Below, piece by piece: positions 2,746 to 19,333 of a stretch of DNA of 64,000 nt. The first letter of the stretch is position 1. Every line of letters starts with the position of its first letter. The translations under genes and the position numbers were made by a program. Source of the DNA: Actinomycetota bacterium (lineage in GTDB: Bacteria > Actinomycetota > Acidimicrobiia > Acidimicrobiales > CADCSY01); contig JADDQY010000126.1 in NCBI GenBank assembly GCA_016781135.1, forward strand, positions 1,861-65,860, read 5' to 3'. Below the pieces are notes generated by a model. The model had not been told where the DNA came from, did not search any database, and worked only from the letters and a program-made list of their open reading frames with translations.

Positions 2746-3279
2746 ATGACGGCGAGCGACTCGGCGCGCCTCGTGGTTGCCGTCGCGCGCCTGGGCGAGG
2801 CGGACCTCGCCGGCTGGTGGCGGTCGCATGGCCTTGACACGGTCGGCGAGTACGTGTTGCCGGACCTGTTCCCCCGAACGGCAACGGTTGTGGGGGCCGA
2901 GCTTGCCGTGCTGTCCGCGGCGAAGCGCCACGCCGACGCCTTGCCGGATCGCGACGACGTCCTCCACCTCTTCGGCGACCCACTTCCGGCCTTCGCAGAG
3001 GCGCTCGCGTGGTTGGCGGAGCTGAAGACAAGTGGCGAGACGAGCTTCCTCGACGAGCTCCGCGGCTGGTCGACGGCCGACGCCGCCCACGCCGAGGTCG
3101 GCGCCGCGACCGGGGAGGCGCCACCGGGCGAGCGGATCGGTACGACGCTGCGACTCGGCAAGGTGGCCGCAGCCGAGCTTGCCGATCCTGTCCGTGCCGC
3201 GGCGGTCGCGAAGTTCCTGGCTGCTGCGTACGCAGGTCAAGGTCGCGACCTCGCTGTCCCCTACTTCGATCTCGCATGA
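2746..3279 (+). CDS. Small protein translationally coupled to brxA (BrxE-like by position)
   Basis: 177 aa. Its stop overlaps the brxA start (ATGA at 3276-3279). It occupies the position brxE holds ahead of brxA in type 6 BREX. No catalytic motif seen. Confidence 0.5.
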   Translation: MTASDSARLVVAVARLGEADLAGWWRSHGLDTVGEYVLPDLFPRTATVVGAELAVLSAAKRHADALPDRDDVLHLFGDPLPAFAEALAWLAELKTSGETSFLDELRGWSTADAAHAEVGAATGEAPPGERIGTTLRLGKVAAAELADPVRAAAVAKFLAAAYAGQGRDLAVPYFDLA

Positions 3280-4040
3280 CGGCGCCGGCGTTTACCGTCA
3301 ACATCCAGAAGGGGGGCGCGTTGCTCCCCGACGCCCGCCGACTCGTGGAGGTCTGGGACGTGTCGGAGCCGGCTGAGGTGAACGTCCGGCGCGTCGCCGA
3401 CGAGAACCTGCTTGGCAAGACGACCAGGCGCCGCCTCGATGACGTCCTGTTGCGCTGCCTGGCGCCTCGTTTTGTCGAACCGGGACCTCACGTGGTCGCC
3501 GCGCTGAAGCGGCTGCTCCCCGATCACCGGGCCTTCATCGAGGCCGCCTACTACGAGACGAGCCGGGACGAGCGCTTGCTCGCTGCGTTTGCAGAGGGGC
3601 CGTGCTTCGCGTGGTACGACGCCGGGCGGTCCCGCGTGACGATCGACGACGCTACGTCATGGCTGGCGGAGCAAGCCGTCGCGGGCGTCTTGGCCGACTG
3701 GTCGCCGACGGTGCGGATCAAAGTCGGCCGCGGACTGCTGGCCGCACTGCGCGACTTCCAGGTTTTCGAAGGCGGCAAGCTCAAACGGTTCGCGCCGCCG
3801 CGGCTGTCCTTGCGTGGCTTCGCGTACGTCGCGTTCCGCCTCCACGAGCAGGGCGCGTCGTCGACGACCATCGCCACATCTCCTGTGTGGCGGCGTTGGC
3901 TCCTCGGCCGCGGGCGCGTCGACGACCTTCTGCACCAGGCTGCCTGCGCGGGACTCCTCACCTATGGCAGCGCCGGAACGGCGATCAGAATCGACTGGCA
4001 CGTCGCGACCGTCGAGGAGGCGATTCGTGCCGCTGCCTAG
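3276..4040 (+). CDS. brxA: BREX protein BrxA (DUF1819 family)
   Basis: The internal ATG at 3276 in the 3009..4040 frame gives 254 aa, MTAPAFTVNIQKGGALLPDARRL...ENLLGKTTRRRLDDVL. Call rests on DUF1819-like pattern and synteny. Confidence 0.75.
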   Translation: MTAPAFTVNIQKGGALLPDARRLVEVWDVSEPAEVNVRRVADENLLGKTTRRRLDDVLLRCLAPRFVEPGPHVVAALKRLLPDHRAFIEAAYYETSRDERLLAAFAEGPCFAWYDAGRSRVTIDDATSWLAEQAVAGVLADWSPTVRIKVGRGLLAALRDFQVFEGGKLKRFAPPRLSLRGFAYVAFRLHEQGASSTTIATSPVWRRWLLGRGRVDDLLHQAACAGLLTYGSAGTAIRIDWHVATVEEAIRAAA

Positions 4041-4605
4041 GACCATTCAGCAAGTCGCCGACACCATCGTCGCGTTCCATGCGAAGCCAGTCGGCGACGG
4101 CCCGTACCAGCTCTACCAGTACCTGCCGCACCAGGAGTACCGGGTCCGGCGGGATCTCGCCGACCTCAAGATCTGGCTCGAAGCCAAGCAGATCAACTGC
4201 GTCGCGATCTCCCTCGCCGATCTCTTCTGGCAGGCGATCGAGGAGAGCGGGCGCTTCGACGCGATCGTCAGCGCCGAGCAGGCCGGCGGTCCGACAGCGC
4301 TCGCGGAGGTCATCGAGTCCATCGGGAACCTCCTGCGGCGCAGCCTGTCGCTCACCGACCGCATCGTCGACGCCGTCAACGAGGTCTCACCCAGGTCGGC
4401 CGTGTTCCTCTACCGCGCCGGTGCCCTGTATCCCGCGATCCGCACCTCCGGGCTCCTCGACGAGCTGCTCGGGCGAGTCCTCCTGCCGGTCACCCTGCTG
4501 TACCCAGGACGCCTTCATGGCGACTTCGGCCTCAGCTTCATGGACATACTGCCGCCGCACTACGGCTACCGCGCCACGATCATCCCGAGAGGAGACGACG
4601 AGTGA
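4027..4605 (+). CDS. brxB: BREX protein BrxB (DUF1788 family)
   Basis: The GTG at 4027 in the 3814..4605 frame gives 192 aa ending ...LLYPGRLHGDFGLSFMDILPPHYGYRATII, typical of the DUF1788 C-terminus. Overlaps the brxA stop by 14 nt. Confidence 0.75.
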   Translation: MPLPRTIQQVADTIVAFHAKPVGDGPYQLYQYLPHQEYRVRRDLADLKIWLEAKQINCVAISLADLFWQAIEESGRFDAIVSAEQAGGPTALAEVIESIGNLLRRSLSLTDRIVDAVNEVSPRSAVFLYRAGALYPAIRTSGLLDELLGRVLLPVTLLYPGRLHGDFGLSFMDILPPHYGYRATIIPRGDDE

Positions 4606-7600
4606 AGGTCGCAGAGGTCTTCCGCCGGCCGATCGAGCGCCGCATCGAGGAGGTCATCAAGGTCGAGCTCGACGACGAGAAGACCGTCGCCGACGAGCTG
4701 ACCGAGTACGTCGCGACCGAGCGCATCCAAACAGCGATGGGGGAGGTGCTCGACTCCTACCAGGAAACCATCGACAACCCGACCGAGGACACCAACGTCT
4801 GGATCTCGGGGTTCTTCGGCTCCGGAAAGTCGAGCTTCGCCAAGGTCATCGGCTACCTCGTCGCCAACCCGGTCGTCGACGGGAAGCAGGCGAGCGACTG
4901 GTTCTTCGCCCACACCACCGCGCCCCGGCTCAAGCAGCTCCTGACGACGCAGATCCACGACCGGGCAAAGGCCGTCACCGTCCTCGTCGACCTGCTCTCC
5001 GCCCGAAACGTGTTGAACGAGGGCGAGAGCATCGTCCTACCGCTGTACCGCGCCCTGCTCGACCGCCTCGGCTACTCGACGGTGATCGCCCTCGCCGAGC
5101 AGGAGATCCGGCTCGAGAAGAAGGGCCTCTACGAGAAGTTCGCCGCCCGGTACCAGGAGCTGTACGACCGGCCGTGGTCGAGCGACCATCACGACCCCCT
5201 CGCCAAGAGCGAGATGAGCCGGGTCCTGCACGACATCGAGCCCGAGACCTTCGAGACCCCCGACAGCTTCGCCCACAGCCACTTCGACATTGCCATCGAC
5301 GCGAACTGGTTGGCGCAACGAGCGCTGGATCTACTCGACCGCCGCGGCCAGGGCGCCACCCGCGTGATGTTCGTAATCGACGAGGTCGGCCAGTACGTGG
5401 CTCGCGACGTCCACCGTGTCGGCGACCTCCAAGGTGTGGCCGAGGCGCTCCAGAAGACGCGCGGCCGGCTGTGGCTTTTGGCCACAAGTCAGCAGCGGCT
5501 CGAGGACATCGTCGAGTCGCTCGAGGGCAACCGGAGCGAGCTCGCCCGGGTGAAGGACCGCTTCCCGATCAAGGTCGACCTGCTCCCGTCCGACATCGAA
5601 GACGTCGTCGCCGCCCGCGTCTTGGACAAGTCCGCGGACGGGCAGGCCGAGGTCCGAACGAGGTTCGCGGCCTCCCGCAACCAGCTGAATGCGAACATCA
5701 AGCTCACCGGCTCCCGCGGGGCCGACCTGGCCGAGGAGCACGTCGTGCGCCTCTACCCGCTGCTGCCGTACCAGGTCCGGCTGTTCATCGACGCCGTCGC
5801 CGCCCGCCGCGAAGGCGGCATGGTGGGCGGCGCCAACCGCACGCTCCTGCGCCTCACCCAGCAGCTCGTGATCTCGCCCGACGTCGGCATCGCGGCCGAA
5901 CAGGTCGGGCGCCTCGCCACGGTCGACCGCGCCTACGACGTCATGGCCTCGATCGTGCCGCCCCGATGGCGCGACGAAGTCGAGCAGGTCGCGGCCCGCC
6001 ACTGTCCCGATGCGCTCCCGACCCGCGCCCTCAAGGTGATCGCGCTGTGCGTCGACGTCCGCGACCTCACGCTCGACGCCCACAACATCGCCGTGCTCCT
6101 CCACGACGACATGGCCGCCGAGTCGCTCGAGGCCGACGTGAAGGTGGCGTTGAAGACGCTCGTCGACGAAGGACGCATCGAGCTCGGCACCGCCGGCTAC
6201 CGCCTGCAGTCGCCCGAGGGGAAGTCGTGGATCGAGGCGCGCAACGTGATCACTCCCAAGGTCGCCGACGTCAACCGCCTCCGAAAGCAGCTCCTCGAGG
6301 GCCCGCTCGGGAGCCTCTCGGTCAACGCTGGACGGACGTTCACGGTCGAGCTGACCGTCGGCGACGAGAAGCTGTCGAAGGGAGACGTGCCCCTCGTGGT
6401 CGTCGAGCAGGACCCGAACGAGCTCCACGGCATCATCACCGAGTCGAGGGTCAAGAAGAACACCGTGTGGTGGACCCACACGCTGTCGAACGCGTCACTG
6501 CAGGCACTCGAGGAGCTCCACAAGAGCCAAGAGATGATCAACCGCCGTCAGGCCAGCGCGCGCGGTGGCGAGGACGCCGAGCTGGTGGCACGGGAGAAGC
6601 GCATCGCGGCCGAGTGGGAGGACAAGGCACGGCGCAGCATCGAGGCAGACCTCGCCACCGGGCGCGTCGTCTTCCTCGGTCGGGTCGACGCACCGCCGAC
6701 TGGCGACCTCAAGACGAGGGGCCAGAAGATCGTCGAGGAGCGGATTCCCGAGATCTACACGCGCCTCGGCGAGTTCGCCGCCTCACTCAAGGCGTCGGAC
6801 CCACTCGTCGTCCTGCGCGACGCAACTCTCGACGGGGTTCCTGCCGCGCTCACCGCGATCAAGCTCGTCGTGGTCAAGCCCTCAGGCAAGGAGATCGAGC
6901 GGACGAAGGGGCCGCTCAAGATGGTGCTCGACGAGATCGCCACCCAGCACGGCTACGGCGCCGAGGTGACCGGTGCCTCGCTTGCTAAGACGTTCGCGGC
7001 ACCGCCGTACGGCGCGTCCATGGAGGTGGTCCAGGCAGTCGTCGCCGCCGGCGTCCGCGAGGGCCTGCTGGACGTGCGATACCAGGGCGCCCTGATCAAG
7101 AACCCGGGCGACCAGCGACTCGACGCGGTGTTCAAGGGCCCCGCGGCGTTCCGCTCGGCAAGCTTCCGCTCGCACGAGGAGGTGGTGCCCGTCGACAAGC
7201 GCGTCGAGCTCGCGAAGAAGCTTACCCGCATCGTTGGCACCAAGGTAAACCCGACGACGGACGAGCTCGCGAGGACGGCCCGCGACATTTTCTCGCCGGA
7301 CGGCGCTGCAGCCGACCGAGTCCGCGCCACCCTCGTCGGCCTCGGCATCGCCGTCCCGACCGCCGTCACCACGGTCGCCGACGCCGCCCGCGACCTCGCG
7401 TCGGGCGATGACGACGGAACGGTGCTGACGGCCCTGGCCGTGTGGCACGACCTCGTCGCCGGGCGAGCCACCGTCGCCCAACTCGCGTCGCTCCTCGACG
7501 CCCACCTCGGCGAGTTGCGCGCCGCCCAGGAGGTCGCCGCCAGCTCCCCCGCCGGTCTGCCCGACGAGCTGGCTGCCGAGCACAGCGAGCTTCGCGATCT

Positions 7601-8057
7601 CCTCGACGCCGGTGACCTCGCCGACAAGCTCGGCCGAATCACCGCCATCACCGGCGCGATCACCGCCCATCGATCGGCTCGCCTGGCCAAGCTGCGCGCC
7701 GAGCTGGTCCAGCGCATGGAAGGCGAGCGCGCCGCGATCCGCGCTCGCTACCCGGCTGTCGACCCCGACGTGATGGCAGAGACGCTCTCACGCCTCGATC
7801 AGCTCAATCCGGTTGAGGGCGAGGAGGTCGGCACCGACGTGCTCGCGGCTCGCCTCGACGCCATCCAGAAGGCCGCCGCCGACGTCGCCCACGCGCTCGA
7901 CAAGGTCATCGCCAAGGAGCGGCTGGCAACGGTGCCGATCAGCGAGATCGCGCCGGACCTCATCCGCACCAGCGATGACCTCACCCTCGTCGTCGAGCGC
8001 CTCCAGAAGCAGGTCGCCGAGCTCCTGGGCGACGACAAGGAGGTCCGCCTCACGTGA
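4602..8057 (+). CDS. brxC: BREX ATPase BrxC/PglY
   Basis: 1151 aa with Walker A GFFGSGKSSFAKV near the N-terminus. GTGA overlap with brxB. Size and position are canonical. Confidence 0.9.
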   Translation: MKVAEVFRRPIERRIEEVIKVELDDEKTVADELTEYVATERIQTAMGEVLDSYQETIDNPTEDTNVWISGFFGSGKSSFAKVIGYLVANPVVDGKQASDWFFAHTTAPRLKQLLTTQIHDRAKAVTVLVDLLSARNVLNEGESIVLPLYRALLDRLGYSTVIALAEQEIRLEKKGLYEKFAARYQELYDRPWSSDHHDPLAKSEMSRVLHDIEPETFETPDSFAHSHFDIAIDANWLAQRALDLLDRRGQGATRVMFVIDEVGQYVARDVHRVGDLQGVAEALQKTRGRLWLLATSQQRLEDIVESLEGNRSELARVKDRFPIKVDLLPSDIEDVVAARVLDKSADGQAEVRTRFAASRNQLNANIKLTGSRGADLAEEHVVRLYPLLPYQVRLFIDAVAARREGGMVGGANRTLLRLTQQLVISPDVGIAAEQVGRLATVDRAYDVMASIVPPRWRDEVEQVAARHCPDALPTRALKVIALCVDVRDLTLDAHNIAVLLHDDMAAESLEADVKVALKTLVDEGRIELGTAGYRLQSPEGKSWIEARNVITPKVADVNRLRKQLLEGPLGSLSVNAGRTFTVELTVGDEKLSKGDVPLVVVEQDPNELHGIITESRVKKNTVWWTHTLSNASLQALEELHKSQEMINRRQASARGGEDAELVAREKRIAAEWEDKARRSIEADLATGRVVFLGRVDAPPTGDLKTRGQKIVEERIPEIYTRLGEFAASLKASDPLVVLRDATLDGVPAALTAIKLVVVKPSGKEIERTKGPLKMVLDEIATQHGYGAEVTGASLAKTFAAPPYGASMEVVQAVVAAGVREGLLDVRYQGALIKNPGDQRLDAVFKGPAAFRSASFRSHEEVVPVDKRVELAKKLTRIVGTKVNPTTDELARTARDIFSPDGAAADRVRATLVGLGIAVPTAVTTVADAARDLASGDDDGTVLTALAVWHDLVAGRATVAQLASLLDAHLGELRAAQEVAASSPAGLPDELAAEHSELRDLLDAGDLADKLGRITAITGAITAHRSARLAKLRAELVQRMEGERAAIRARYPAVDPDVMAETLSRLDQLNPVEGEEVGTDVLAARLDAIQKAAADVAHALDKVIAKERLATVPISEIAPDLIRTSDDLTLVVERLQKQVAELLGDDKEVRLT

Positions 8058-11000
8058 GCGGCCTGGACGAACGCCAGCGGCGCGCGCTCGCCCAGCTCGT
8101 CGCCGCCGCGCGTTCGACGCTCTACGACGACGCCGAGCGCGCCCTCCGCGGCGTCTATGGCATCGTCCCCGACGGCACGCTCCAGCCCGTCGAAGGGCTG
8201 GTGCCCGACCCCGCGCTCCACGCGCGCCGCAGGACGCTCGAGGACGTCCTGCGGTACCTCCGCGCCGACGGCGCGACCGCGAGCGGCGCTGTCGAGCGAC
8301 TCACCCGACAAGTCGCCTTCACCCACCTCAACCGGCTCCTCGCCATCCGCGTCGCTGACGCCCTCGGCGTCCTCGCCTCGTCGCTGCGCGACGGCACGGA
8401 CTCCGCCGGGTTCCGTCAATGGGTCACCGACCTCGCCCCGCTTCTCGCCACGGCCGACGACACCGGCGGCTACTGGACCTACCTCAGCCAGTGCGCCGAC
8501 GAGCTCGCCGTCGACGCTCCCGCCCTGTTCGACCCCCGCAATCCGCTGCTCGCGCTACGCCCGTCGAAGGCGGCCTTCGAGCAGGTCGTGGCGCTCCTCG
8601 CCGACCCCGCCAACGCCGACCTGTGGGACGCCGACGACACCTTCGGTTGGGCGTACCAATTCTTCAACACCAAGGACGAGCGCCAGCAGATGCGGGCCGC
8701 GTCCGCCGCGCCCCGCGACAGCCGCGAGCTCGCCGTGCGGAACCAGTTCTTCACGCCGGCCTACGTCGTGCGGTTCCTCGTCCACAACACCCTCGGCCGC
8801 CGCCTCGTCGACGCCGACGCGTCGACGCCGCTGCTCGACCAGCTCGACCTCCTCGTCGACCCACCGACCACCAAGGCCGCCCCGGTCGACCTCGCCCAGG
8901 TGAAAGTCCTCGACCCGGCGTGCGGCAGCGGCCACTTCCTCCTCGGTTGCTACGACGTGCTCGAAGCGGCGTGGGCGCTGCGGGGCGTCCCGCCCGCCGA
9001 GGCTGCCGCCCGCATCGTCCCTGCCCTGTGGGGCATCGACATCGACCCCCGCGCCGTCCAGGTCGCCCAGGCGGCCGTGATCTTCCGCGCCCGGCGCGCC
9101 TGCGGCCGCGCCGCGCTGCCGCCGCCGAACATCGTGTGCGCCCGCGCCCTGCCCGAGGACGAGGTGGCTTGGGCCCACGCCGAAGCCGGCCTCAGCGCCG
9201 ACCTCCGCCACCTTGTGGCCGAGATGCGCGCCGCCCTCCGTGACGCGCCCGTGCTCGGCCCCCTCCTCAAGGCCGAGCAGCGCCTCGCCGTGGCGATCCG
9301 CTCCACCATCGCCGGCGCCGACGACACCGGCGACGACCTCTTCGCCACGGCCGGCATCGCCCACGACAACTTCGGCAACGCCGAGCGCGCCTTAGTGGCG
9401 GCGCTCCAGCGCGCCGCCGACGCGACGACCGCGACCGCTGCGGAACGCCTTCTCGCCGCTCACGCGTCAGATGCCGTCCGCTTCCTCGAAGCAGTACGAA
9501 GCCGGTATGACGTCGTCCTGATGAATCCGCCGTTTGGATTGGCGGTGCCTGAGACTGAGGCCTATCTCAAGTCGGCATATGCCCTCGGGTGGACAGATCT
9601 CTATGCATGCTTTGTGTTCCGGGCTTTGGAACTGCTGCGCGCTGACGGTTACAGCGGGTCGATCACTTCGAATCAGTATTTTACGACTCGGAAGCTCCTA
9701 GGGTTCCGCAAACAACTAGTCGAACGACATCGGCCCATTGTTGTCGTGGATCTCGGGGCAGGTGTCCTCCATGACGCTGCTGTCAACGTGTCCTGTCAGA
9801 TTCTTCCAAACAGTCGGTACAGCGGTCAGACACTCTATGCCGATCTCGCACGTCTCATTGCAGCGGATCAAGCCGGGGCGTTTGATAGGGGGGAAGTTGA
9901 CTTCGCCTCAGTTGATCTGGCCACGTTTCTCAACGTCGATGGTGTCCCCTTCGCCTTTCACGTAGAGGTGGATCGCCTGGGAGCATGGAGCGAGTCCGCT
10001 GCGCGGTTTGAGCCGGCTATAGGGATCGTACGAACCGGAGGGAATACGTTCGACAACTTCCGGTTCGTCCGGTGCCGCTGGGAAGTAGAAACGAGCAAAC
10101 TCGGAACCGAGTGGGTCTCGTACCAAAAAGGTGGCGAGTTTAGGCCGTACTGGGCTAGCTCGCATCTTGTCGTTGACTGGCGCAACAACGGGGAACAGCT
10201 CCGCAACTTCGGGCACCAGCGTGGCGTGCTTCCTCAAGTGATGCAGTCGTCAACTCACTGGCGCCGACCAGGTCTCTGCTACCCGCGAGCAAACAAGATG
10301 CTCGGTGTTCGACTACTTCCGGCGAACGAGATCTTTGCTGAGAAGTCGATCGCAATATTCCCGGCAGAGGATGCGATCCTGCTTCCTGTGCTCGCGTTCC
10401 TGAACAGCTCTACGGCTCTGCAACTTGCACGTACCTTTGGGCGCAGCCGGTTCATCGAGAACAGTGCTATCAAGCGGCTGCCGGTGTCACGAGAGCAGAT
10501 CAGCGGCCTCCGTGATCTCGATGAGGACATCGCAGCATTGGTGGACATTGGTCGCCAGCAGGAAGCACTCGACGAGACGACTGCCCTGTTCAGGGGATTC
10601 ACCGTCGACTACGACAGGTGGGCGGACTGGATTTCTCTCGCGCGCTCCGAGGCTGCAGAGCTCCAACAGAGGATCGACCACGCCGTCGCGACACGTCTGG
10701 GCGTCGCCGTCGAGAGTGGGCAAGCCGAGCGCCTCGGCGCCATCCTTGACGCGCTCGTATCAACGGCCGACGCAAGCGAGTGGGGTCAGCGCCTGCTGAG
10801 CTTCCTCGTCGGCGCCGCGTTTCGACGGTGGGAGGTGACAACGGCCGCTCCCGGTAACTCGGTCTTCCGGTTGGGATGGACTAAGCCCTTACCGGCGGTG
10901 CCACCTGGGGCTGGGCCAGCGTGGGACAGTGCCGACGCCGACGCCGTTCAGTTCATACTTCTCGACGAGCCGGGCAGCGATCGGGACATCGTCGCCGCGG

Positions 11001-11569
11001 TCGAAGCGATCTCGGGGCGAATTGCAGCCGGGGGCGAACTTCTCGATCGCGCGGTGGCGGAGGTCGGTGAGCGGACGCTGCGTTCGTACATCCGACGGCG
11101 CTTCTTCAAGGAGCACCTCGGCCGCTACTCCAAGAGTCGGCGGCAGGCGCCCGTCTACTGGCAGCTCATGGTCCCATCGGGGCAGTGGAGCGCCTGGCTC
11201 TACGCCCCTCGATTCAGCCGGGAAATGCTCTACGCGCTGGTCACGTTGGCCGACCACCGTCTCGCCCTCGCCGGCGAGCGGATCGAGGCGCTCCAGCGTG
11301 ACGACACCACGTCGGCGCGGCAGCGGCAGAAGGCGGTCGACGCGGAACGCACCCTCGCGACGGAGCTGCAGGACCTGCGCGGCGACATCGCCCGGCTCGC
11401 CGGCCTCGGCTGGCAGCCCGACCTCGACGACGGCTACGTGCTGTGCGCCGCGCCACTCGCCCGGTGGTTCCCGAAGAACATGTGGCGGCAGCTCGGCGAG
11501 CAGCTCGCCGCCATCAAGAAGGGTGCCTACCCGTGGGCCGGCGTCGACGGGCACCGGGACGAGCTGTGA
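8054..11569 (+). CDS. pglX: BREX N6-adenine DNA methyltransferase PglX
   Basis: 1171 aa with SAM-binding VLDPACGSGHFLL and catalytic VVLMNPPFG. GTGA overlap with brxC. Confidence 0.9.
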   Translation: MSGLDERQRRALAQLVAAARSTLYDDAERALRGVYGIVPDGTLQPVEGLVPDPALHARRRTLEDVLRYLRADGATASGAVERLTRQVAFTHLNRLLAIRVADALGVLASSLRDGTDSAGFRQWVTDLAPLLATADDTGGYWTYLSQCADELAVDAPALFDPRNPLLALRPSKAAFEQVVALLADPANADLWDADDTFGWAYQFFNTKDERQQMRAASAAPRDSRELAVRNQFFTPAYVVRFLVHNTLGRRLVDADASTPLLDQLDLLVDPPTTKAAPVDLAQVKVLDPACGSGHFLLGCYDVLEAAWALRGVPPAEAAARIVPALWGIDIDPRAVQVAQAAVIFRARRACGRAALPPPNIVCARALPEDEVAWAHAEAGLSADLRHLVAEMRAALRDAPVLGPLLKAEQRLAVAIRSTIAGADDTGDDLFATAGIAHDNFGNAERALVAALQRAADATTATAAERLLAAHASDAVRFLEAVRSRYDVVLMNPPFGLAVPETEAYLKSAYALGWTDLYACFVFRALELLRADGYSGSITSNQYFTTRKLLGFRKQLVERHRPIVVVDLGAGVLHDAAVNVSCQILPNSRYSGQTLYADLARLIAADQAGAFDRGEVDFASVDLATFLNVDGVPFAFHVEVDRLGAWSESAARFEPAIGIVRTGGNTFDNFRFVRCRWEVETSKLGTEWVSYQKGGEFRPYWASSHLVVDWRNNGEQLRNFGHQRGVLPQVMQSSTHWRRPGLCYPRANKMLGVRLLPANEIFAEKSIAIFPAEDAILLPVLAFLNSSTALQLARTFGRSRFIENSAIKRLPVSREQISGLRDLDEDIAALVDIGRQQEALDETTALFRGFTVDYDRWADWISLARSEAAELQQRIDHAVATRLGVAVESGQAERLGAILDALVSTADASEWGQRLLSFLVGAAFRRWEVTTAAPGNSVFRLGWTKPLPAVPPGAGPAWDSADADAVQFILLDEPGSDRDIVAAVEAISGRIAAGGELLDRAVAEVGERTLRSYIRRRFFKEHLGRYSKSRRQAPVYWQLMVPSGQWSAWLYAPRFSREMLYALVTLADHRLALAGERIEALQRDDTTSARQRQKAVDAERTLATELQDLRGDIARLAGLGWQPDLDDGYVLCAAPLARWFPKNMWRQLGEQLAAIKKGAYPWAGVDGHRDEL

Positions 11570-14073
11570 CCAGCCCGCTCCGCACCCGGCTCGCCGACCT
11601 GCTCGCCTCGGCCATCGACCGCCACCACCTGGTCGTGTGGCAGGACACACCGGGCGAGTACGGCGCTGTCGCCGACGCGGCGGTGCCGGCCGACGTGGCC
11701 TTCGCTCGCTACGACGGCAGCTGGTTCGAGCTCCGCCACCGCGTCGAGACGCAGCTCGCGCTGGCCGAGCCGCCACGGCTCGTGGTCTACGTCGGCGCCG
11801 GCCCGCCCCCCGCTGACCCGCTCGCTGAGTTGCGGGCAGCCGCCCACATCTTCGAGATGCCTCTCCGCACGCTCGTCAGGACGGCGCTCGACACCCATCT
11901 CGCCGCCACCCAGATCGACGCCATCGCCGACAGTGCGAAGACCTTCGGGGAGGCCGAGGCCGCCGCCGGCACCGGCGTCCCCCCCGGGGTCGTCTCGCTC
12001 GTGCCGATCCTCGGCGCCGGCCTCTCCGCCGTCGCCATGATCGTCGAGGTGCTCGGCGGCCGCCGGGACGCCGCAGTCGACGCGAAGGCCGCGTGGGGCG
12101 ACGTCCAGCGCCTCGTCGAGCGGACCTTAAACATCGCCACCGGCGACACCCACGACAAGCTGCGCGAGACCGTCGCACGCGTGTTGCTCCTCGACGCCGT
12201 CGACCGTGCGGGCGTGCTCCCGGAACGCCTCCACACCGCCCTCCCATCTGCCGACGACACCCAGCTGGCGGCCCGCGCGCAAGCCATCGGCGAGTGGTGG
12301 GCCCGGCATCCCGAGCAAGCTGCGGTCGCGTTCAGGGCCGCGGACGACAGCGCTGGTCTCGCCGAAGACATTCGCTGGGCCGACGACCTCGCCGCGGTCG
12401 ACGTCGCCGGGTCGATCGAATCGATCGCCGCCCGACGGGCGCTCGACCTGATCGCCGGCGGCGACAACGGCGCCGCGGAGGCGCTCGCCCTGCGGCGACT
12501 CGGTGGGCGGTGGACGCGGCTCGCCACCGTTGTCCCGGCGTCCGATGACGGCTGGGCCATGCGCTGGCGGGCGATCGTCGCTCTGGCGGAGCTACGCCAT
12601 GACATCGCTGCCCATGTGGTTGCGGCGGGAGCCGACAGCTCGGCGATGCTCACCTGGTACGCCAGCGATGGCTGGCGCGCCGACCGCGCCCACCGCCGGC
12701 TCGAGCTGGCCCTCACCGCTCTCGCCGAGCATGGTGAGCTCGAGCAACCCGTCGCCGAGGTCCGCGCCGCGTACGAGGACTGGCTCGCCGCGGTCATCGA
12801 GCGCTTCACCAACGCCGTCGACGCGGCCGGCTTCGCCACCGGGTCGCTGCTGCGGCAGTCAGAGATCTTCGCTCGTTACGTCAAGACCGGCGACCTCCCG
12901 ACCGCGTACATCTGGGTCGACGCATTCCGCTACGAGCTCGCCGTGGACGTCACCGAGTCCCTGCGCGCCGCCGGCAACGACGTGGAGCTAGTGCCCGCCA
13001 TCGCAGCGGCGCCCACGATCACACCGGTCGGCATGGCCAACTTGTGCCCCGGCTCAGACCAGGGCTTCTACATCGACGAGCACGGCGGCACGCTGACCGT
13101 CAACGTCGCCGGCACGATCGTTGCCAACGTCGACGACCGGCGGAAACTGCTCCGAGGCGCGCTCGGCGAGGTCGCCGACCTCGAGCTGGGCAAGTGCGTG
13201 CAGCTTGGCGAGCAGGCGCTACGCAAGGAGATCGAGGGCGCCAAAGCGGTCCTTGTCCGCTCCACCGAGTTCGACGTCCACGGCGAGTCCGGTCTCCTGA
13301 GCGCGGCGTGGACCGGCTTCGCCGACACACAGGGGACCCTGCCGCGGGTCGTCGCCAAGCTCGCCAAGGCCGGCGTCCGCAGGGTGGTCATCACCGCCGA
13401 CCACGGCTTCATCTCCCTCAGCCGCCGCCTCGGCGACGCCTACAAGATCGACGCTCCCAAGGGCGGTAGCGGCGACCTCCACCGCCGGGCGTGGATCGGC
13501 CGGGGCGGCGTCGACCATCCCTCGGTCGTCCGCGTGCCACTCGCCTCGACGGGCGTGTCGTCCGACCTCGACCTGCTCGTCCCCCGAGGGCTCGCCCTGT
13601 TCAAGGCGGGCGGCTCGAAGCAGTTCTTCCACGGCGGGCTGTCACCGCAGGAGCTGGTCGTGCCCGTCGTCGTCGCGGACCTCGCCGTGCCCGCCGACAC
13701 CGGCTCGGTCAAGGTCGACGTCGACGTCGTCGGTGGCGTGATCTCCACCGGCGTCTTCGCCGCGACGGTCTCTTTCAGCGGCAACCTCTTCACCGCCTCG
13801 GTCGTCGTCCGGGCCGTCGCCCGCCGCGGCAAGGACCTCGTCGTCGCCCATGTGGTCAGCGGCGACGGCTTCGATCCCGCATCCGGCACCGTCGAGGTCC
13901 CCGCGAGCAACGAGGTGCGCCTGGTGTTCCAGGTGACGAAGCGACTCGAGCCGAACGACCAGGTCGAGGTGCACGTGCTCGACGCCCGCACCGACGCCAT
14001 CCTGGGGAAGGCCTCCGTTTCGGTGGCTGCGCCCGTGTCGACCTTCGACGACGACCTCGAGGACGAGCGATGA
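11566..14073 (+). CDS. pglZ: BREX alkaline-phosphatase-fold protein PglZ
   Basis: The GTG at 11566 (GTGA overlap with the pglX stop) gives 835 aa. PglZ-type VVITADHGF block. Canonical position. Confidence 0.85.
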   Translation: MTSPLRTRLADLLASAIDRHHLVVWQDTPGEYGAVADAAVPADVAFARYDGSWFELRHRVETQLALAEPPRLVVYVGAGPPPADPLAELRAAAHIFEMPLRTLVRTALDTHLAATQIDAIADSAKTFGEAEAAAGTGVPPGVVSLVPILGAGLSAVAMIVEVLGGRRDAAVDAKAAWGDVQRLVERTLNIATGDTHDKLRETVARVLLLDAVDRAGVLPERLHTALPSADDTQLAARAQAIGEWWARHPEQAAVAFRAADDSAGLAEDIRWADDLAAVDVAGSIESIAARRALDLIAGGDNGAAEALALRRLGGRWTRLATVVPASDDGWAMRWRAIVALAELRHDIAAHVVAAGADSSAMLTWYASDGWRADRAHRRLELALTALAEHGELEQPVAEVRAAYEDWLAAVIERFTNAVDAAGFATGSLLRQSEIFARYVKTGDLPTAYIWVDAFRYELAVDVTESLRAAGNDVELVPAIAAAPTITPVGMANLCPGSDQGFYIDEHGGTLTVNVAGTIVANVDDRRKLLRGALGEVADLELGKCVQLGEQALRKEIEGAKAVLVRSTEFDVHGESGLLSAAWTGFADTQGTLPRVVAKLAKAGVRRVVITADHGFISLSRRLGDAYKIDAPKGGSGDLHRRAWIGRGGVDHPSVVRVPLASTGVSSDLDLLVPRGLALFKAGGSKQFFHGGLSPQELVVPVVVADLAVPADTGSVKVDVDVVGGVISTGVFAATVSFSGNLFTASVVVRAVARRGKDLVVAHVVSGDGFDPASGTVEVPASNEVRLVFQVTKRLEPNDQVEVHVLDARTDAILGKASVSVAAPVSTFDDDLEDER

Positions 14074-16091
14074 GCATCAAGATGGATCACCTCGACCGCC
14101 TGGCCAACGACGTCTTCCCCGGGCGCGTCGTCCGCAAGGACCTCGTGCGCCGCGTCAAGGTCGGCCACAACGTCCCGGTGCACGTGCTCGAGTTCCTCCT
14201 GGGCAAGTACTGCGCGTCCGACAACCCCGACGTGGTCGAGCAGGGCCTCGTCGTGGTCAACCAGACCCTGCAGGAGAACTTCATCCGCCCCGACGAGGCG
14301 GAGCTCGCCAAGGCGAAGGTGAAGTTCAAGGGGCAGCACCGGATCATCGACAAGGTCGAGGCTCGGCTCGCCGAAAACCGGTTCTGGGCCACGCTCAGCA
14401 ACTTCACCGACAAGTGGGTCCACATCCACGAGGACATCGTGAAGCGCTACGAACGCCTTCTGCAGGGCGGCGTGTGGTGCCAGATCGACCTTATCTACAA
14501 CGAGCTGGAGGACGAGAAGCCGCTCCGGCCCTTCTACATCAAGGCTCTGAAGCCGATCCAGGTTGCGGCGTTCGACATCGAGGACTACCTCGCCGGCCGC
14601 TCGCGCTTCTCGCGTGACGATTGGCTCGATCTCCTCGTCCGCTCCATCGGCCTGGAGGCGTCGCAGTACGACCTTCGCGCCAAGCTCGTCTCGCTGACAC
14701 GCCTGATCCCGATGGTCGAGCGCAACTACAACCTGATCGAGCTCGGCCCGTGGGGTACAGGCAAGTCGTTCGTGTACCGGGAGCAGTCACCAAACACCAT
14801 CCTCGTGTCGGGCGGCAAGGTCACCGTCCCGCAGCTGTTCGTCAACAACGCGACCGGACGCGTCGGCCTGCTCGGGATGTGGGATGTCGTCGCCTTCGAC
14901 GAGGTTGCCGGGCTCGAGCTCTCCGACACCACGGTTGTCCAGATGCTCAAGGACTACATGGAGGCGGGGTCGTTCGCTCGCGGCCGCGACGAGATCGTCG
15001 CCGAAGCCTCGACTGTGTTCGTCGGCAACACCACCCGACCGCACACCCAGCTGGTCCGCGACGCCCACCTCTTCGCCGACTTGCCGAAGGCGATGATCGA
15101 CCCGGCCTTCCTCGATCGCATGCACTTCTACCTTCCGGGGTGGGAAACGCCGAAGCTCGAGCCTCAGTTGTTCACCGACCACTACGGCTTCGTCTCGGAC
15201 TACCTCTCGGAGGCAATGCGGCAGCTGCGAAAGCGCACGTTCGTGAACGCGATCGACGCCGAGTTCGCTCTCGGCCCGCACCTGGCTCAGCGAGACGCGA
15301 AGGCCGTTCGCAAGACGGTTTCAGGTCTGCTCAAGCTGCTCCACCCTCACGGCGAGTGGACCCGCTCCGAGCTGCGTGAGTACCTCGAGTGGGCGATGGA
15401 AGGTCGCCGCCGTGTGAAGGAGCAGCTGAAGAAGCTCGCCGCGCACGACTTCTCGAAGACGGCCTTCACCTATGTCGAGGTCGATACGGGCCGCGAGTAC
15501 CCGGTCGAGGTGGCGGAGCAGCCGGAGGAGGATGTCGTCGCCGAGGCCCTCGAAGAGGAGCCGGCCGCGGGCGTGAGCGGCGGCGTTGACGCGGGGCCCG
15601 CGGTGCTGCCGACGGCCGAGTTGATCGCGGCTGGCGAGAGCCGCAACGTCGAGTTCAAGTCGACCGCTCGGTTGAACCTCCACACCAACCAGCGCGACCC
15701 CGCGATCGAGCTCGCCGTGGTCAAGACCGTCGCCGGGTTTCTCAACACTTACGGCGGCACGCTGGTGATCGGCGTGGCCGACGACGGCACCCTTCGGGGA
15801 CTGCACGACGACTACGTCACCGTGGGCAAAAAGGGCCGTGACGGGTACGAGAACTTCCTCACGACGCTGCTGGACACACGCGTCGGGCGAGCGGCCGTGG
15901 CGCACGTGAGCGTCAGCTTTGAGGCGGTCGACGGCCACGACGTCTGCCGGGTCGACGTGAAGCCCAGTCCCGAACCGGTCTTCGTGACGAACGACAAGGG
16001 CGACGCCGACCTCTACGTCCGTCTCAACAACAGCACCCGGCTGTTGAACACGTCGGACGCCTTGACGTACGTCCGGCAGCATTGGCGATAG
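14070..16091 (+). CDS. brxL: BrxL-type AAA ATPase with C-terminal AlbA_2 (Schlafen-like) domain
   Basis: The ATG at 14070 (ATGA overlap with the pglZ stop) gives 673 aa. BrxL-like N-terminus (FPGRVVRKDLV...VLEFLLGKYC), Walker A GPWGTGKS and Walker B VVAFDEV. An acidic linker is followed by ESRNVEFKS...VAGFLNTYGGTLVIGVADDG, which is AlbA_2-like. Confidence 0.8.
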   Translation: MSIKMDHLDRLANDVFPGRVVRKDLVRRVKVGHNVPVHVLEFLLGKYCASDNPDVVEQGLVVVNQTLQENFIRPDEAELAKAKVKFKGQHRIIDKVEARLAENRFWATLSNFTDKWVHIHEDIVKRYERLLQGGVWCQIDLIYNELEDEKPLRPFYIKALKPIQVAAFDIEDYLAGRSRFSRDDWLDLLVRSIGLEASQYDLRAKLVSLTRLIPMVERNYNLIELGPWGTGKSFVYREQSPNTILVSGGKVTVPQLFVNNATGRVGLLGMWDVVAFDEVAGLELSDTTVVQMLKDYMEAGSFARGRDEIVAEASTVFVGNTTRPHTQLVRDAHLFADLPKAMIDPAFLDRMHFYLPGWETPKLEPQLFTDHYGFVSDYLSEAMRQLRKRTFVNAIDAEFALGPHLAQRDAKAVRKTVSGLLKLLHPHGEWTRSELREYLEWAMEGRRRVKEQLKKLAAHDFSKTAFTYVEVDTGREYPVEVAEQPEEDVVAEALEEEPAAGVSGGVDAGPAVLPTAELIAAGESRNVEFKSTARLNLHTNQRDPAIELAVVKTVAGFLNTYGGTLVIGVADDGTLRGLHDDYVTVGKKGRDGYENFLTTLLDTRVGRAAVAHVSVSFEAVDGHDVCRVDVKPSPEPVFVTNDKGDADLYVRLNNSTRLLNTSDALTYVRQHWR

Positions 16092-16110: not shown

Positions 16111-17961
16111 ATGCCGGCGGTGAGCACGTTCGACAGCACCAAGACCGACCTGGTCGAGCTCCTTACGAGCGCTCGAACTGGTGAGGCGCAGCTGCCCGAT
16201 TTCCAGCGCGGGTGGGTTTGGGACGACGAGCACATCCGCGACCTGATCGCGAGCGTCTCCCGGTCGTTCCCGATCGGCACGGTGATGATGCTGGAGCACG
16301 GCGGCGAGGTGAGCTTCCGAACTCGCCCGCTCGAGGGCGCCACACCCGATTCCCGCACCCCCGAGCTGCTCGTCCTCGACGGTCAGCAGCGGCTCACGTC
16401 GCTGTTCCAGTCGCTCATGTCCGGCAAGCCGGTCGCGACCAAGGACGCCAAGGCGCTTCCTATCGAGCGGTGGTACTACCTCGACATCCGGAAGTGCCTC
16501 GACCCGAACATCGAACGTGAGGACGCCGTCTTCTCGATCCCGGCCGATCGAGTCCTGCGCACGAACTTCGGCCGGGACGTCGTGATCGACCTCAGCACGA
16601 GAAGCGATGAGTACGAGCAGTGCATGTTTCCGCTGAGCGAGGTGTTCGACCACTACGACTGGGCCTCGGGGTTCAGAGAGAGGCATGGATACGACCCCGA
16701 CGTCAGCCGGATGTGGGACAAGTTCGAGCGCGACGTCGTCCAGCGCTTCCGCTCGTACCAGCTACCGGTCATCCGGCTCCACAAGCAGACGCCGAAGGAG
16801 GCCGTCTGCCTCGTTTTCGAGAAGGTCAACACCGGCGGCGTGTCGCTGACCGTCTTCGAGTTGCTGACTGCCACCTTTGCCGCCGTTGCGCCACCGGACT
16901 TCGAGCTCCGCGGCGACTGGGAGGCGCGAGAGCGCCGTCTCCACCAACAGCGCGTGCTGCGCGACGTCGCAAACACCGACTTCTTGCAGGCGATCACGCT
17001 GATCGTCACACGAGAGCGGCAACAAGCAGCGCTAGCTGCCGGCGAAGAGGAGGACCGTGTCCCCGGCATCAGCTGCAAGCGCCGAGACATCCTCCGCCTG
17101 ACCTTCGACGACTACCAGCGGTGTGCCGATCCGGTCACGCAGGGCTTCGAGCGGGTCGCTCGCTTCCTGCACCGGGAGCGCATCTTCGAGACGAAGTACC
17201 TGCCCTACAGCACCCAGCTCGTTCCGCTGGCGGCGCTGCTCTCCGTCCTAGGCGATGACGGCTTGGAGAAGCCTGCGGTGCGGGACAAGCTGGCGCGCTG
17301 GTACTGGTGCGGCGTCTTCGGAGAGCTGTACGGCTCAGCGACCGAGACACGCTTCGCCCGTGACCTGCCGGAAGTGCTGCGTTGGATTGAGGATGACACC
17401 GCTGTCCCCCGGACGATCGTCGATGCGAACCTCACGCCAGAGCGTGTGGTAACGCTCCGCACCCGCAACAGCGCCGCCTACAAGGGCGTGTATGTGCTGC
17501 TCATCCGGGAGGGCGCTCGTGACTTCCGCACCGGCGAAACGGCGAACGACCAGAACTACTTCGAGGAAGCAGTCGACATCCATCACATCTTCCCGCAGAA
17601 GTGGTGCCGTGAGCGCAAGCCCGAACCGGTTTCCGCCGGGCTGTTCGACAGCATCGTGAACAAGACACCGTTGACAGCTCGCACCAATCGGATAATCGGC
17701 GGGCGAGCGCCGAGCGAGTATCTGAGGAGCCTGCGCGAGAACCACGGTGTGTCGAAGGCCGACGAGACGAAGAACCTCGAGTCGCACTTCATCGAGCCGG
17801 AGAACCTCCGCGCTGATGACTTCGAAGCGTTCTTCCGCGCCCGGCACCGGGAGCTCCTCGACCGAATCGGCGCAGTCATGAGGAAACAGCTCCTTGTCGA
17901 TCGGACGGAGACCGCGGCGAAACCGGTCTCGTACGAGGAGCTTGAGGGCACAGACGAGTGA
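16111..17961 (+). CDS. GmrSD-family type IV restriction enzyme (DUF262 + DUF1524), BrxU-like
   Basis: 616 aa. N-terminal LPDFQRGWVW and LVLDGQQRLTSL (DUF262). C-terminal DIHHIFPQKW...NKTPLTARTN (DUF1524 His-Me finger). Lies 19 nt after brxL with a GGAGGA Shine-Dalgarno. Confidence 0.85.
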   Translation: MPAVSTFDSTKTDLVELLTSARTGEAQLPDFQRGWVWDDEHIRDLIASVSRSFPIGTVMMLEHGGEVSFRTRPLEGATPDSRTPELLVLDGQQRLTSLFQSLMSGKPVATKDAKALPIERWYYLDIRKCLDPNIEREDAVFSIPADRVLRTNFGRDVVIDLSTRSDEYEQCMFPLSEVFDHYDWASGFRERHGYDPDVSRMWDKFERDVVQRFRSYQLPVIRLHKQTPKEAVCLVFEKVNTGGVSLTVFELLTATFAAVAPPDFELRGDWEARERRLHQQRVLRDVANTDFLQAITLIVTRERQQAALAAGEEEDRVPGISCKRRDILRLTFDDYQRCADPVTQGFERVARFLHRERIFETKYLPYSTQLVPLAALLSVLGDDGLEKPAVRDKLARWYWCGVFGELYGSATETRFARDLPEVLRWIEDDTAVPRTIVDANLTPERVVTLRTRNSAAYKGVYVLLIREGARDFRTGETANDQNYFEEAVDIHHIFPQKWCRERKPEPVSAGLFDSIVNKTPLTARTNRIIGGRAPSEYLRSLRENHGVSKADETKNLESHFIEPENLRADDFEAFFRARHRELLDRIGAVMRKQLLVDRTETAAKPVSYEELEGTDE

Positions 17962-17990
17962 CCCCGACGGCGATCACCCCGACGGCGATC
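17961..17990. repeat. Perfect 15-bp tandem direct repeat (ACCCCGACGGCGATC x2)
   Basis: Copies at 17961-17975 and 17976-17990. They fill the gap between the convergent GmrSD stop and integrase stop. Confidence 0.9.
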
Positions 17991-19236: not shown

Positions 19237-19260
19237 CGCCCTTGACCTGCTACTTTGCGG

Positions 19261-19333
19261 CGCCCCCGGCAGGACTCGAACCTGCGACGCACGGTTTAGG
19301 AAACCGACGCTCTATCCTCTGAGCTACGGGGGC
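19261..19333 (-). tRNA. tRNA-Arg (anticodon CCT)
   Basis: Hand fold: acceptor GCCCCCG/CGGGGGC, D arm GCTC-AGAGGATA-GAGC, anticodon arm TCGGT-TTCCTAA-ACCGT, T arm GCAGG-TTCGAGT-CCTGC, discriminator G. CCA is not encoded. Confidence 0.85.

Follow-up and report, generated by a model that had tools for sequence, protein, structure and literature searches.

The locus studied here raises the question of why BrxL, a core protein of BREX defense, should end in a Schlafen/AlbA_2 domain and what such a domain would do at that position. We analyzed a window of 64,000 nucleotides of actinomycetotal DNA (the window being the whole stretch under study; every feature given below lies on its plus strand). 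The brxL gene (14070..16091) is a single open reading frame (ORF) of 673 aa with Pfam, NCBIfam, and PADLOC BrxL matches, and it comes last among the core genes of a type 1 BREX operon, brxA-brxB-brxC-pglX-pglZ-brxL. The operon starts with brxA (ORF limits 3009..4040, the true start probably lying near 3290; Pfam BrxA at ORF aa 95-274, E = 2.7e-13; PADLOC BrxA) and brxB (ORF limits 3814..4605, the start probably lying downstream, past the brxA stop; Pfam BrxB at ORF aa 131-255, E = 3.3e-16). These are followed by brxC, encoding a PglY-like ATPase (4602..8057; PADLOC BrxC, E = 1.5e-163; Pfam DUF6079), the pglX methyltransferase gene (8054..11569; PADLOC PglX, E = 1e-198; Pfam Eco57I and N6_Mtase), and pglZ (ORF limits 11443..14073, start uncertain; PADLOC PglZ, E = 1.2e-95; Pfam PglZ). 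The brxL start codon at 14070 overlaps the pglZ stop codon as ATGA, and the frame then runs uninterrupted to the stop codon at 16089-16091.

The N-terminal and ATPase parts of the protein are those of a genuine type 1 BREX BrxL. The N-terminal domain (BrxL_N, aa 15-143; 14112..14498; PF20442, E = 3.8e-39) is followed by an AAA+ (MCM-like) ATPase (aa 155-466; 14532..15467; PF13337, E = 3.8e-127; also covered by the alignment to 8EMC). The N-domain and AAA motifs quoted in an earlier note on this DNA are all present in the ORF, among them the Walker A motif GPWGTGKS (residues 226-233), the Walker B motif VVAFDEV (residues 273-279), and YLPGWETPKLEP (residues 354-365). The canonical BrxL of Acinetobacter (8EMC/8EMH; Shen et al. 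2023, PMC10164562) shares the N-terminal domain and the AAA+ domain with its Walker A and B motifs, is likewise encoded by the last gene of brxA-brxB-brxC-pglX-pglZ-brxL, and has a similar length (679 aa versus 673 aa here). ATP-dependent ring assembly on dsDNA and a need for BrxL in restriction are known only for the Acinetobacter and E. coli proteins (PMC10164562).

The likeness to canonical BrxL stops abruptly near residue 492. The solved Acinetobacter structure 8EMC matches with an E value of 1e-157 but is aligned only with residues 7-492. The NCBIfam model TIGR02653 scores 681 bits (cut-off, 628 bits), with only positions 3-494 of its 675 matched and positions 495-675 left unmatched in this BrxL; the match to the PADLOC BrxL models ends at about position 496 of 680. 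At residues 498-679, the Acinetobacter protein carries a Lon/RadA-like domain; in the protein of the window, this place is taken by a Schlafen/AlbA_2 domain that is not related to it and that follows an acidic, disordered linker. A Pfam search of BrxL returned neither Lon_C nor ChlI at E <= 0.01, the Lon_C proteolytic domain with its Ser-Lys dyad (Lon protease S16) had no match, and the fold of the tail is that of Schlafen. With an hhalign probability of 0.5% between this tail and Lon-type BrxL tails, the earlier observation that a Lon protease block is missing holds. The limit of the 8EMC alignment at residue 492 and an hhalign probability below 1% show that the Lon-like domain has been replaced rather than having diverged. 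The earlier note was thus right about the swap but called the lost part an effector end. The canonical Lon/RadA-like domain has no protease catalytic motif and joins rings tail to tail (PMC10164562), so what was swapped out was a structural domain.

The linker (aa 483-515; 15516..15614) has a variable, acidic sequence that includes EQPEEDVVAEALEEEP, and it extends past the end of 8EMC homology at residue 492. In an AlphaFold2 (AF2) model of full-length BrxL built with 46 close homologues, its residues 483-510 have a pLDDT below 50 and are predicted to be disordered. The mean pLDDT of that model was 67.5, and values fell below 50 across residues 219-358; the ATPase region is therefore poor and domain packing unreadable, and we used only the confidence of the linker and the tail. 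The sole conserved linker positions in an alignment of 46 BrxL-AlbA_2 sequences (alignment A3) are E483-Q484-P485. In canonical BrxL, this is the place at which the Lon-like C-terminal domain is attached.

The C-terminal domain itself (aa 516-673; 15615..16088) is a Schlafen/AlbA_2 domain (PF04326) by both sequence and fold, as the earlier note had proposed, and its limits in the structure model plus the stop codon agree with the 15610-16091 given there. Pfam SLFN_AlbA_2 matches residues 523-659 of the full protein with 58.3 bits (E = 1.4e-15; cut-off, 25.3 bits), and the last 173 aa alone score 62.2 bits (E = 8e-17). The stretch LYVRLNNSTRLL quoted in the note is also present. The structure comparison suggested there gave the same answer: the solved BrxL aligned with residues 7-492 only, the AF2 model of the tail had a pLDDT of 96, and a Foldseek search with it returned 21 matches at E <= 0.001, all of them AlbA_2, Schlafen, or SAMD9 structures (best matches, 3lmm, Slfn13, SAMD9, and SLFN5/11/12/14). 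The nearest structure is bacterial DIP2311 (3lmm; TM score, 0.63). A profile of the domain matched SLFN14 (E = 2e-8), SLFN11, Slfn13, SLFN12, SLFN5, and CbCash in the PDB. The AlbA_2 domains of SLFN11, SLFN13, SLFN14, and SAMD9 match in fold (Foldseek probability, 1.0) with their catalytic Glu-Glu-Asp aligned, although the query-normalized TM score to eukaryotic Schlafens is only 0.4 to 0.5. The eukaryotic Schlafen nuclease core is two-lobed, a pseudo-dimer of about 330 aa with a zinc finger, whereas the BrxL tail has a single lobe of about 150 aa; its activity would therefore depend on oligomerization. A second AlbA_2 copy was not found in the window.

The tail retains the Schlafen catalytic signature, Ex4ExK plus GVxD (E523, E528, K530, and D571). 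The Ex4ExK motif (E523-S-R-N-V-E528-F-K530; 15636..15659) lies in ESRNVEFKSTARL, which begins at residue 523, and was placed by HMM alignment to SLFN14, SLFN11, and Slfn13. In the profile alignment, ESRNVEFK of the tail pairs with ESTHVEFK of SLFN14, and the two glutamates of the motif fall on the catalytic glutamate pair of Schlafen nucleases; a chain in 9jr9 with an E-to-A mutation aligns at the second. D571 (15780..15782), within GGTLVIGVADDG, falls on the Schlafen catalytic aspartate (D248 of rat Slfn13) when GVADDG of the tail is paired with GVDDES of Slfn13. Conservation of these positions is high. Among the 56 sequences of alignment A1, E523 is invariant, and E528 and K530 each occur in 55. 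All four residues are invariant in alignment A3 and kept in all eight divergent BrxL-AlbA_2 representatives. The motif corresponds to the Ex4(E/D)xK that PMC13056530 defines for prokaryotic Schlafens. Since the catalytic residues are retained, a predicted enzymatic effector is a better reading than a binding module. Of the earlier description as a nucleic-acid-binding module, the AlbA_2 identity stands, but a binding-only role is less probable for a domain that keeps nuclease residues.

How could such an enzyme act? We lean toward a reading, by analogy with characterized Schlafens, in which the tail would work as an endonuclease that is anchored to the ring of BrxL and gated by ring assembly, with RNA (tRNA) as its most likely substrate. 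The N-terminal DNA-binding region and MCM-like ATPase would load hexameric rings around dsDNA as in the Acinetobacter protein. Past residue ~492, the acidic disordered linker of about 30 residues would tether the single Schlafen/AlbA_2 domain with its putative metal-dependent catalytic signature. The endonuclease would then be gated by the ATP-dependent build-up of BrxL on phage DNA that is unmethylated; this could, for example, draw Schlafen domains close to one another, given that characterized Schlafens work as dimers or higher oligomers. The RNA (tRNA) substrate is suggested by every characterized Schlafen nuclease, and the outcome would be a translation-shutoff, abortive-type second layer in this BREX variant. 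As described in PMC13462974 and PMC13056530, prokaryotic single-domain Schlafens with Ex4(E/D)xK are Mn2+/Mg2+-dependent tRNA endonucleases controlled by oligomerization.

The closest parallels are the pSlfn fusions (PMC13056530) and Cash (PMC13462974, 9ylu), in which a single Schlafen/AlbA_2 domain with Ex4(E/D)xK is joined, in a defense setting, to a sensing or regulatory partner. The tail profile matches the Schlafen domain of CbCash, and by this analogy, the BrxL tail would be an oligomerization-gated tRNA endonuclease. There are two differences. The partners described there are HisKinase/GHKL ATPases, HTH, Ig-like, DUF262, Csx15, Argonaute, NACHT, and methyltransferases, and the text available to us does not name the BrxL MCM-like AAA+ ring; the Schlafen domain is also usually N terminal in those proteins but C terminal in this BrxL. 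A second parallel comes from Schlafen-HisKinase-wHTH genes adjoining BREX, which likewise tie a Schlafen-family RNase to BREX; PMC12839542 reads this RNase as a suicidal backup effector. They are stand-alone genes that bring sensors of their own, whereas in the window the Schlafen domain belongs to the polypeptide of BrxL, a core BREX component.

The tails of other BrxL representatives bear on how general this arrangement may be. They include Lon_C, MIT_C, protein kinase, and TIR, as well as the double tails Lon_C+HEPN, Lon_C+PIN, Lon_C+AlbA_2, and MIT_C+AlbA_2 (tail counts are biased toward relatives of the query). Because the representatives carry so many different tails, the C terminus of BrxL can be viewed as an exchangeable effector slot. 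More speculatively, BrxL may be a modular effector-delivery motor, its ring sensing or loading on unmodified phage DNA and its C-terminal slot carrying interchangeable toxic effectors (Schlafen, HEPN, PIN, TIR, protein kinase, or PLD); we regard this as possible but not as the likelier state of affairs. If it were so, type 1 BREX of the Schlafen lineages would stop phage mainly or additionally by DNA-triggered cleavage of tRNA or other RNA, so that a restriction-like system would contain an abortive-infection arm of its own. It would also explain the presence of this AlbA_2 subfamily on HsdR, GmrSD-like proteins, and methylases.

A noncatalytic tail has to be weighed against the tethered RNase. 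Some AlbA_2/Schlafen domains, such as the SAMD9 DNA-binding domain and SLFN5, are mainly nucleic-acid binders, and some of their catalytic residues differ or are missing. The structural matches of the tail include the DNA-binding domain of SAMD9 (7ksp), AlbA_2 has long been annotated as a DNA/RNA-binding domain, and the conserved basic residues K530, R534, K552, R627, R651, and R657 suit nucleic-acid binding. Because the replaced domain had a structural role, namely, ring-ring dimerization by a C-terminal domain lacking a protease motif (PMC10164562), the tail might be structural too: a binding or oligomerization module in place of the Lon-like domain, which dimerizes rings tail to tail or grips DNA or RNA leaving the ring. 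We consider this rather unlikely. Even BrxL-fused copies whose core identity is as low as about 35 to 45% have E523, E528, and D571 without exception, and pure binding would not need them. A long, disordered, and variable linker would also be a poor stand-in for a rigid dimerization domain. In the BrxL representatives P0250 and P0253, moreover, AlbA_2 follows an intact Lon_C or MIT_C domain, which argues for an addition and against a structural replacement.

With the tail taken as a nuclease, the main alternative is cutting of the DNA held by the BrxL ring. BrxL would thread unmethylated phage DNA, and the Schlafen-type domain would nick or cut it. This variant would then be a restriction enzyme proper, in analogy to the role proposed for the HKD/PLD tail of other BrxLs. 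BrxL does encircle dsDNA (PMC10164562), and the AlbA_2 subfamily of the tail is attached to DNA-tracking restriction components, at the 3' end of HsdR C-terminal genes and in DUF262, methylase, and PLD proteins. The HKD swap has also been read in print (PMC12839542) as direct degradation of invading DNA. To this we assign a low probability, given that the characterized Schlafen nucleases in the cited work (PMC13056530 and PMC13462974) cleave tRNA or rRNA and that the other small effectors on BrxL tails (HEPN, PIN, and TIR) are typically RNA- or NAD-directed abortive effectors, not DNases.

Replacement of the BrxL tail is not new in itself. The exchange of the Lon-like tail for another putative nuclease, HKD (PLD, MIT_C), has been published (Li et al. 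2025, PMC12065111; NAR 2026 survey, PMC12839542), and separate Schlafen genes beside BREX are reported in PMC12839542. BrxL-HKD and the AlbA_2-type BrxL are each found in type 1 BREX loci that are complete, and both keep the N-terminal and ATPase parts, but the chemistry differs, PLD-type HxK/R..D versus Schlafen Ex4ExK plus D, and the two share no profile or structural similarity. That the tail is this HKD variant mislabeled by Pfam is highly improbable: although HKD replaces the Lon-like domain in 1,030 of 2,913 BrxL-bearing taxa (PMC12839542) and the window sequence has GHDVCRVD, Pfam found no MIT_C or PLD match in BrxL, the hhalign probability against MIT_C-type tails was 0.4%, no PLD structure was among the Foldseek matches, the His of GHD is not conserved and the tail lacks any conserved His, and MIT_C and AlbA_2 coexist as separate domains in P0253, which together rule the identity out. 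The earlier note knew of no description of the BrxL-Schlafen fusion, and none was named in the literature searched, which takes in the main texts of PMC13056530 and PMC13462974; swapping of the BrxL C terminus as such was already in print with HKD.

The fusion matters for BrxL more widely. The mechanism by which BREX blocks phage replication and the part that BrxL plays are still counted among the open questions (PMC12707154), and BrxL has been hard to interpret because its canonical tail is catalytically silent. An AlbA_2-type BrxL with intact catalytic residues provides an experimental handle, as do the HEPN, PIN, TIR, kinase, and PLD variants: the effector activity of the tail could be mutated and assayed and could serve as a reporter for the time and place of BrxL activation. 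The variant offers a hint of the way in which BrxL might deliver a lethal activity. With it, the connection between Schlafen immunity in bacteria and in humans would reach a core component of a defense system that is among the commonest.

The BrxL-Schlafen fusion is a conserved natural variant. The survey of homologues called for in the earlier note found the same C-terminal swap in 120 of the 120 closest homologues, all with a length of 664 to 696 aa (NCBI, JGI, ENA, and Logan clusters). At nine GTDB species loci (Actinomycetota and unclassified metagenome-assembled genomes [MAGs]), the AlbA_2-type brxL comes last, after brxC-pglX-pglZ, and loci L002 to L008 have the gene order of the operon in the window. 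Codon usage is also uniform, with a GC3 of 0.88 to 0.96 in a single frame from the N-domain through the ATPase and the linker to the AlbA_2 segment, so that neither a frameshift nor a missed stop is suggested, and the splitting of the ORF that the earlier note had considered is absent. That faulty assembly or annotation, or a frameshift, merged brxL with a separate downstream AlbA_2 gene has next to no probability and is ruled out by this continuous single-frame ORF, the architecture of the homologues, and the nine independent species genomes (cultured Mycobacterium isolates among them); nothing was found in its favor, though free-standing relatives of the domain exist. A search with the C-terminal domain alone returned mainly such free-standing proteins and short fragments and was of no use for counting fusions. 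One plasmid match (Actinomyces oris, 47% identity) proved to be a free-standing protein of 322 aa encoded amid housekeeping genes and not a BrxL. A GmrSD gene was considered as a conserved partner of the AlbA_2-type BrxL and rejected, as it is absent downstream at all nine loci (L001 to L009). In the window itself, a GmrSD-family (DUF262/DUF1524) type IV restriction-like gene (16111..17961; GmrSD_N, E = 7.8e-30, with a weak GmrSD_C match) begins 19 nt past brxL with its own GGAGGAG ribosome-binding site.

The plus strand of the window encodes a complete type 1 BREX operon. Pfam identified brxA (ORF 3009-4040) and brxB (ORF 3814-4605), and PADLOC identified brxC (4602-8057), pglX (8054-11569), and pglZ (ORF 11443-14073), with E values from 1e-95 to 1e-198 across these three. 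The last gene, brxL (14070-16091), is a continuous ORF of 673 codons whose ATG overlaps the pglZ stop as ATGA. Its GC3 is 0.88 to 0.96 in one frame throughout the N-domain, ATPase, linker, and tail. A 1,128-codon ORF in another frame (3602-6988, plus strand) overlaps brxB and brxC; its first 334 residues had no family match, and it is most likely one of the spurious long ORFs often seen in DNA of 70% GC.

A Pfam scan of BrxL (E ≤ 0.01) found BrxL_N (aa 15-143; E = 3.8e-39), BrxL_ATPase (aa 155-466; E = 3.8e-127), and SLFN_AlbA_2 (aa 523-659; E = 1.4e-15; 58.3 bits against a cutoff of 25.3), with no Lon_C, no ChlI, and nothing beyond these three domains. With the last 173 residues as the sole query, the SLFN_AlbA_2 match reached an E value of 8e-17. 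The NCBIfam BrxL model TIGR02653 scored above its cutoff but over model positions 3 to 494 of 675 only, the PADLOC BrxL models stopped matching at about 496 of 680, and the solved Acinetobacter BrxL (8EMC/8EMH) could be aligned to residues 7 to 492 only (E = 1e-157). The end of this last homology coincides with a protease-sensitive junction near residue 500, ahead of the C-terminal domain, in Acinetobacter BrxL (PMC10164562). The earlier note had read an AlbA_2 end at 15610-16091 and no Lon block; both readings were borne out, and all motifs it quoted were found in the translation. The BrxL ring-ATPase core is joined to the Schlafen domain via a disordered, variable, acidic linker, with pLDDT below 50 at residues 483 to 510 of the full-length model and conservation limited to E483-Q484-P485 in an alignment of 46 full-length BrxL-AlbA_2 proteins.

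A profile built from the tail and 55 homologs matched human SLFN14 in the PDB (E = 2e-8), as well as pig SLFN11, rat Slfn13, SLFN12, SLFN5, and, among bacterial structures, the CRISPR-associated Schlafen CbCash and the AlbA_2 proteins 3lmm and 2kyy. The AlphaFold2 model of residues 516 to 673 (pLDDT 96; pTM 0.91) gave 21 Foldseek matches in the PDB at E ≤ 0.001, all of them AlbA_2, Schlafen, or SAMD9 (top match 3lmm; TM 0.63), and no Lon or phospholipase D structure. In profile-profile comparison, the tail matched 64 Lon-type BrxL tails with a probability of 0.5% and the MIT_C-type BrxL tails with one of 0.4%. The BrxL C terminus has therefore been replaced by an unrelated domain and has not simply diverged.

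The BrxL-AlbA_2 fusion is real and conserved. A survey for the same C-terminal swap found the same three Pfam domains in all 120 best homologs (identity down to 66%; NCBI, JGI, ENA, and Logan assemblies) except one 566-aa sequence for which AlbA_2 was not recorded; taxa include Mycolicibacterium monacense, Acidimicrobiia, Gaiella, and Gemmatimonas. Among the 80 best GTDB loci (one genome per species), 9 had the fusion (Actinomycetota, Acidimicrobiia, Propionibacteriales, Mycobacterium yunnanensis, Mycobacterium sp. E2733, and two unclassified MAGs), 70 were of the Lon_C type, and 1 was truncated at a contig end. Fusion brxL was preceded by brxC-pglX-pglZ in every locus with enough flank. Between the window (4602-16091) and nine related loci with AlbA_2-type brxL (L001 to L009), identity was 71 to 76% for the BrxL core, 49 to 67% for the Schlafen tail, and only about 35 to 50% for BrxC, PglX, and PglZ. 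By this measure, BrxL is far more constrained than the remaining operon.

An exhaustive HMMER search with BrxL residues 1 to 500 yielded 4,051 clusters at 50% identity. From the best 150 clusters, 54 representatives with a substantial tail were analyzed, and their Pfam types, in counts skewed toward kin of the query, were Lon_C (24), MIT_C (PLD/"HKD" type; 8), AlbA_2 (8), protein kinase (4; e.g., P0241), TIR (1), HEPN (1), and PIN (1). Composite tails occur in the metagenomic BrxL proteins P0250 (Lon_C+AlbA_2), P0253 (MIT_C+AlbA_2), P0232 (Lon_C+PIN), and P0239 (Lon_C+HEPN); the P0250 form may be an intermediate toward the Lon-less BrxL of the window. In a rough neighbor-joining core tree without support values, AlbA_2 types were interspersed with Lon_C, MIT_C, and kinase types at five or more positions, which suggests that tails have been shuffled repeatedly in BrxL, whose C terminus acts as an exchangeable slot. 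The metagenomic P0272 (1,093 aa) has BrxC C-terminal domains (fourth domain, wHTH, helical) followed directly by part of BrxL_N, the BrxL ATPase, and Lon_C. This protein is either an assembly chimera or a true fusion of BrxC with BrxL that arose when pglX and pglZ were deleted.

In canonical BrxL, the C-terminal domain folds like Lon/RadA, lacks a conserved protease catalytic motif, and dimerizes rings tail to tail (PMC10164562), whereas the BrxL studied here has an unrelated Schlafen domain instead. Replacement by PLD-type tails is already published: Li et al. 2025 (PMC12065111) pointed out MIT_C-like domains in BrxL, and a 2026 survey reports that, of 2913 BrxL-bearing taxa, 1030 have an "HKD" tail (PMC12839542). 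Its available text also describes genes for Schlafen-HisKinase-wHTH proteins as backup RNases next to BREX loci, in at least 1017 taxa, and makes no mention of a BrxL-Schlafen fusion. Schlafen homologs that have ATPase domains and are "tightly associated" with BREX form Cluster 2 of PMC13462974, whose main text gives no more, and searching full texts for BrxL together with AlbA or Schlafen turned up nothing else relevant. Within the text searched, no description of the fusion was found, in line with the earlier note. BrxL-Schlafen is a real, conserved, and mechanistically suggestive variant that extends an already recognized tail-swap theme.

In HMM alignments, E523-x4-E528-F-K530 falls on ESxxxEFK of SLFN14, SLFN11, and Slfn13, with the second Glu at the E-to-A mutation of an SLFN14 mutant chain (9jr9), and GGTLVIGVADDG aligns with Slfn13 GGYLLFGVDDES, so that D571 occupies the position of catalytic D248. 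E523 is invariant in the tail alignment of 56 sequences, 55 of which have E528 and 55 K530. None of the four residues varies in the 46 full-length fusions, and all four are kept in 8/8 divergent 50%-identity fusion representatives. According to PMC13056530, Ex4(E/D)xK is the motif of 5,930 prokaryotic Schlafen nucleases, tRNA cleavers in phage defense, and PMC13462974 describes the single-domain bacterial Schlafen CbCash as an Mn2+/Mg2+-dependent tRNA endonuclease activated by oligomerization. Because of the conserved Ex4ExK and D571, and by analogy with these Schlafens, the tail fits the description of a probable nuclease better than that of a DNA/RNA-binding module; its AlbA_2 identity stands.

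The Schlafen tail would be an active nuclease, its action tied to the assembly of BrxL rings on DNA that lacks the modification. RNA, specifically tRNA, is the favored candidate substrate, since the other small BrxL tail domains (HEPN, PIN, and TIR) are classic abortive effectors. The characterized Schlafen nucleases point the same way, as all those in the cited literature cleave tRNA or rRNA (PMC13056530 and PMC13462974). Cleavage of DNA is possible, given that BrxL grips dsDNA and that this AlbA_2 subfamily is regularly joined to restriction components that track DNA. A role confined to structure or binding is less likely, as the acidic residues are invariant and AlbA_2 can also follow an intact Lon_C or MIT_C.

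The closest free-standing relatives of the tail (P0205 and P0189; 44 to 46% identity) are encoded by genes that overlap the 3' end of type I restriction HsdR C-terminal-domain (PF11867) genes (L081, 1322-2612; L083, 4479-6714). Both HsdR genes appear to be truncated, at 174 and 527 aa, and the pairs are either frameshift-broken fusions or genuine two-gene units. Plasmid-borne relatives lie within DUF262, methylase, and PLD-domain proteins. Five further proteins of 230 to 265 aa (P0149, P0152, P0160, P0162, and P0175) carry an N-terminal hydrophobic YeaQ/YmgE-like membrane segment and a Schlafen domain of the same subfamily as the BrxL tail, to which it is 50 to 53% identical; they may represent a version of the nuclease anchored in the membrane.

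A GmrSD-family (DUF262/DUF1524) gene (16111-17961, plus strand) with its own ribosome-binding site (GGAGGAG) lies 19 nt downstream of brxL and is similar to the type IV restriction genes of BrxU type that accompany some BREX loci. Its presence is specific to this locus, because no GmrSD gene lies downstream of AlbA_2-type brxL in the nine related loci. A tyrosine integrase gene (17989-19236, minus strand; Pfam Phage_integrase, E = 1e-22) marks the end of the island and directly adjoins tRNA-Arg(CCT) (19259-19333). The block of BREX and GmrSD genes thus appears to belong to an integrative element that inserted at the tRNA gene.
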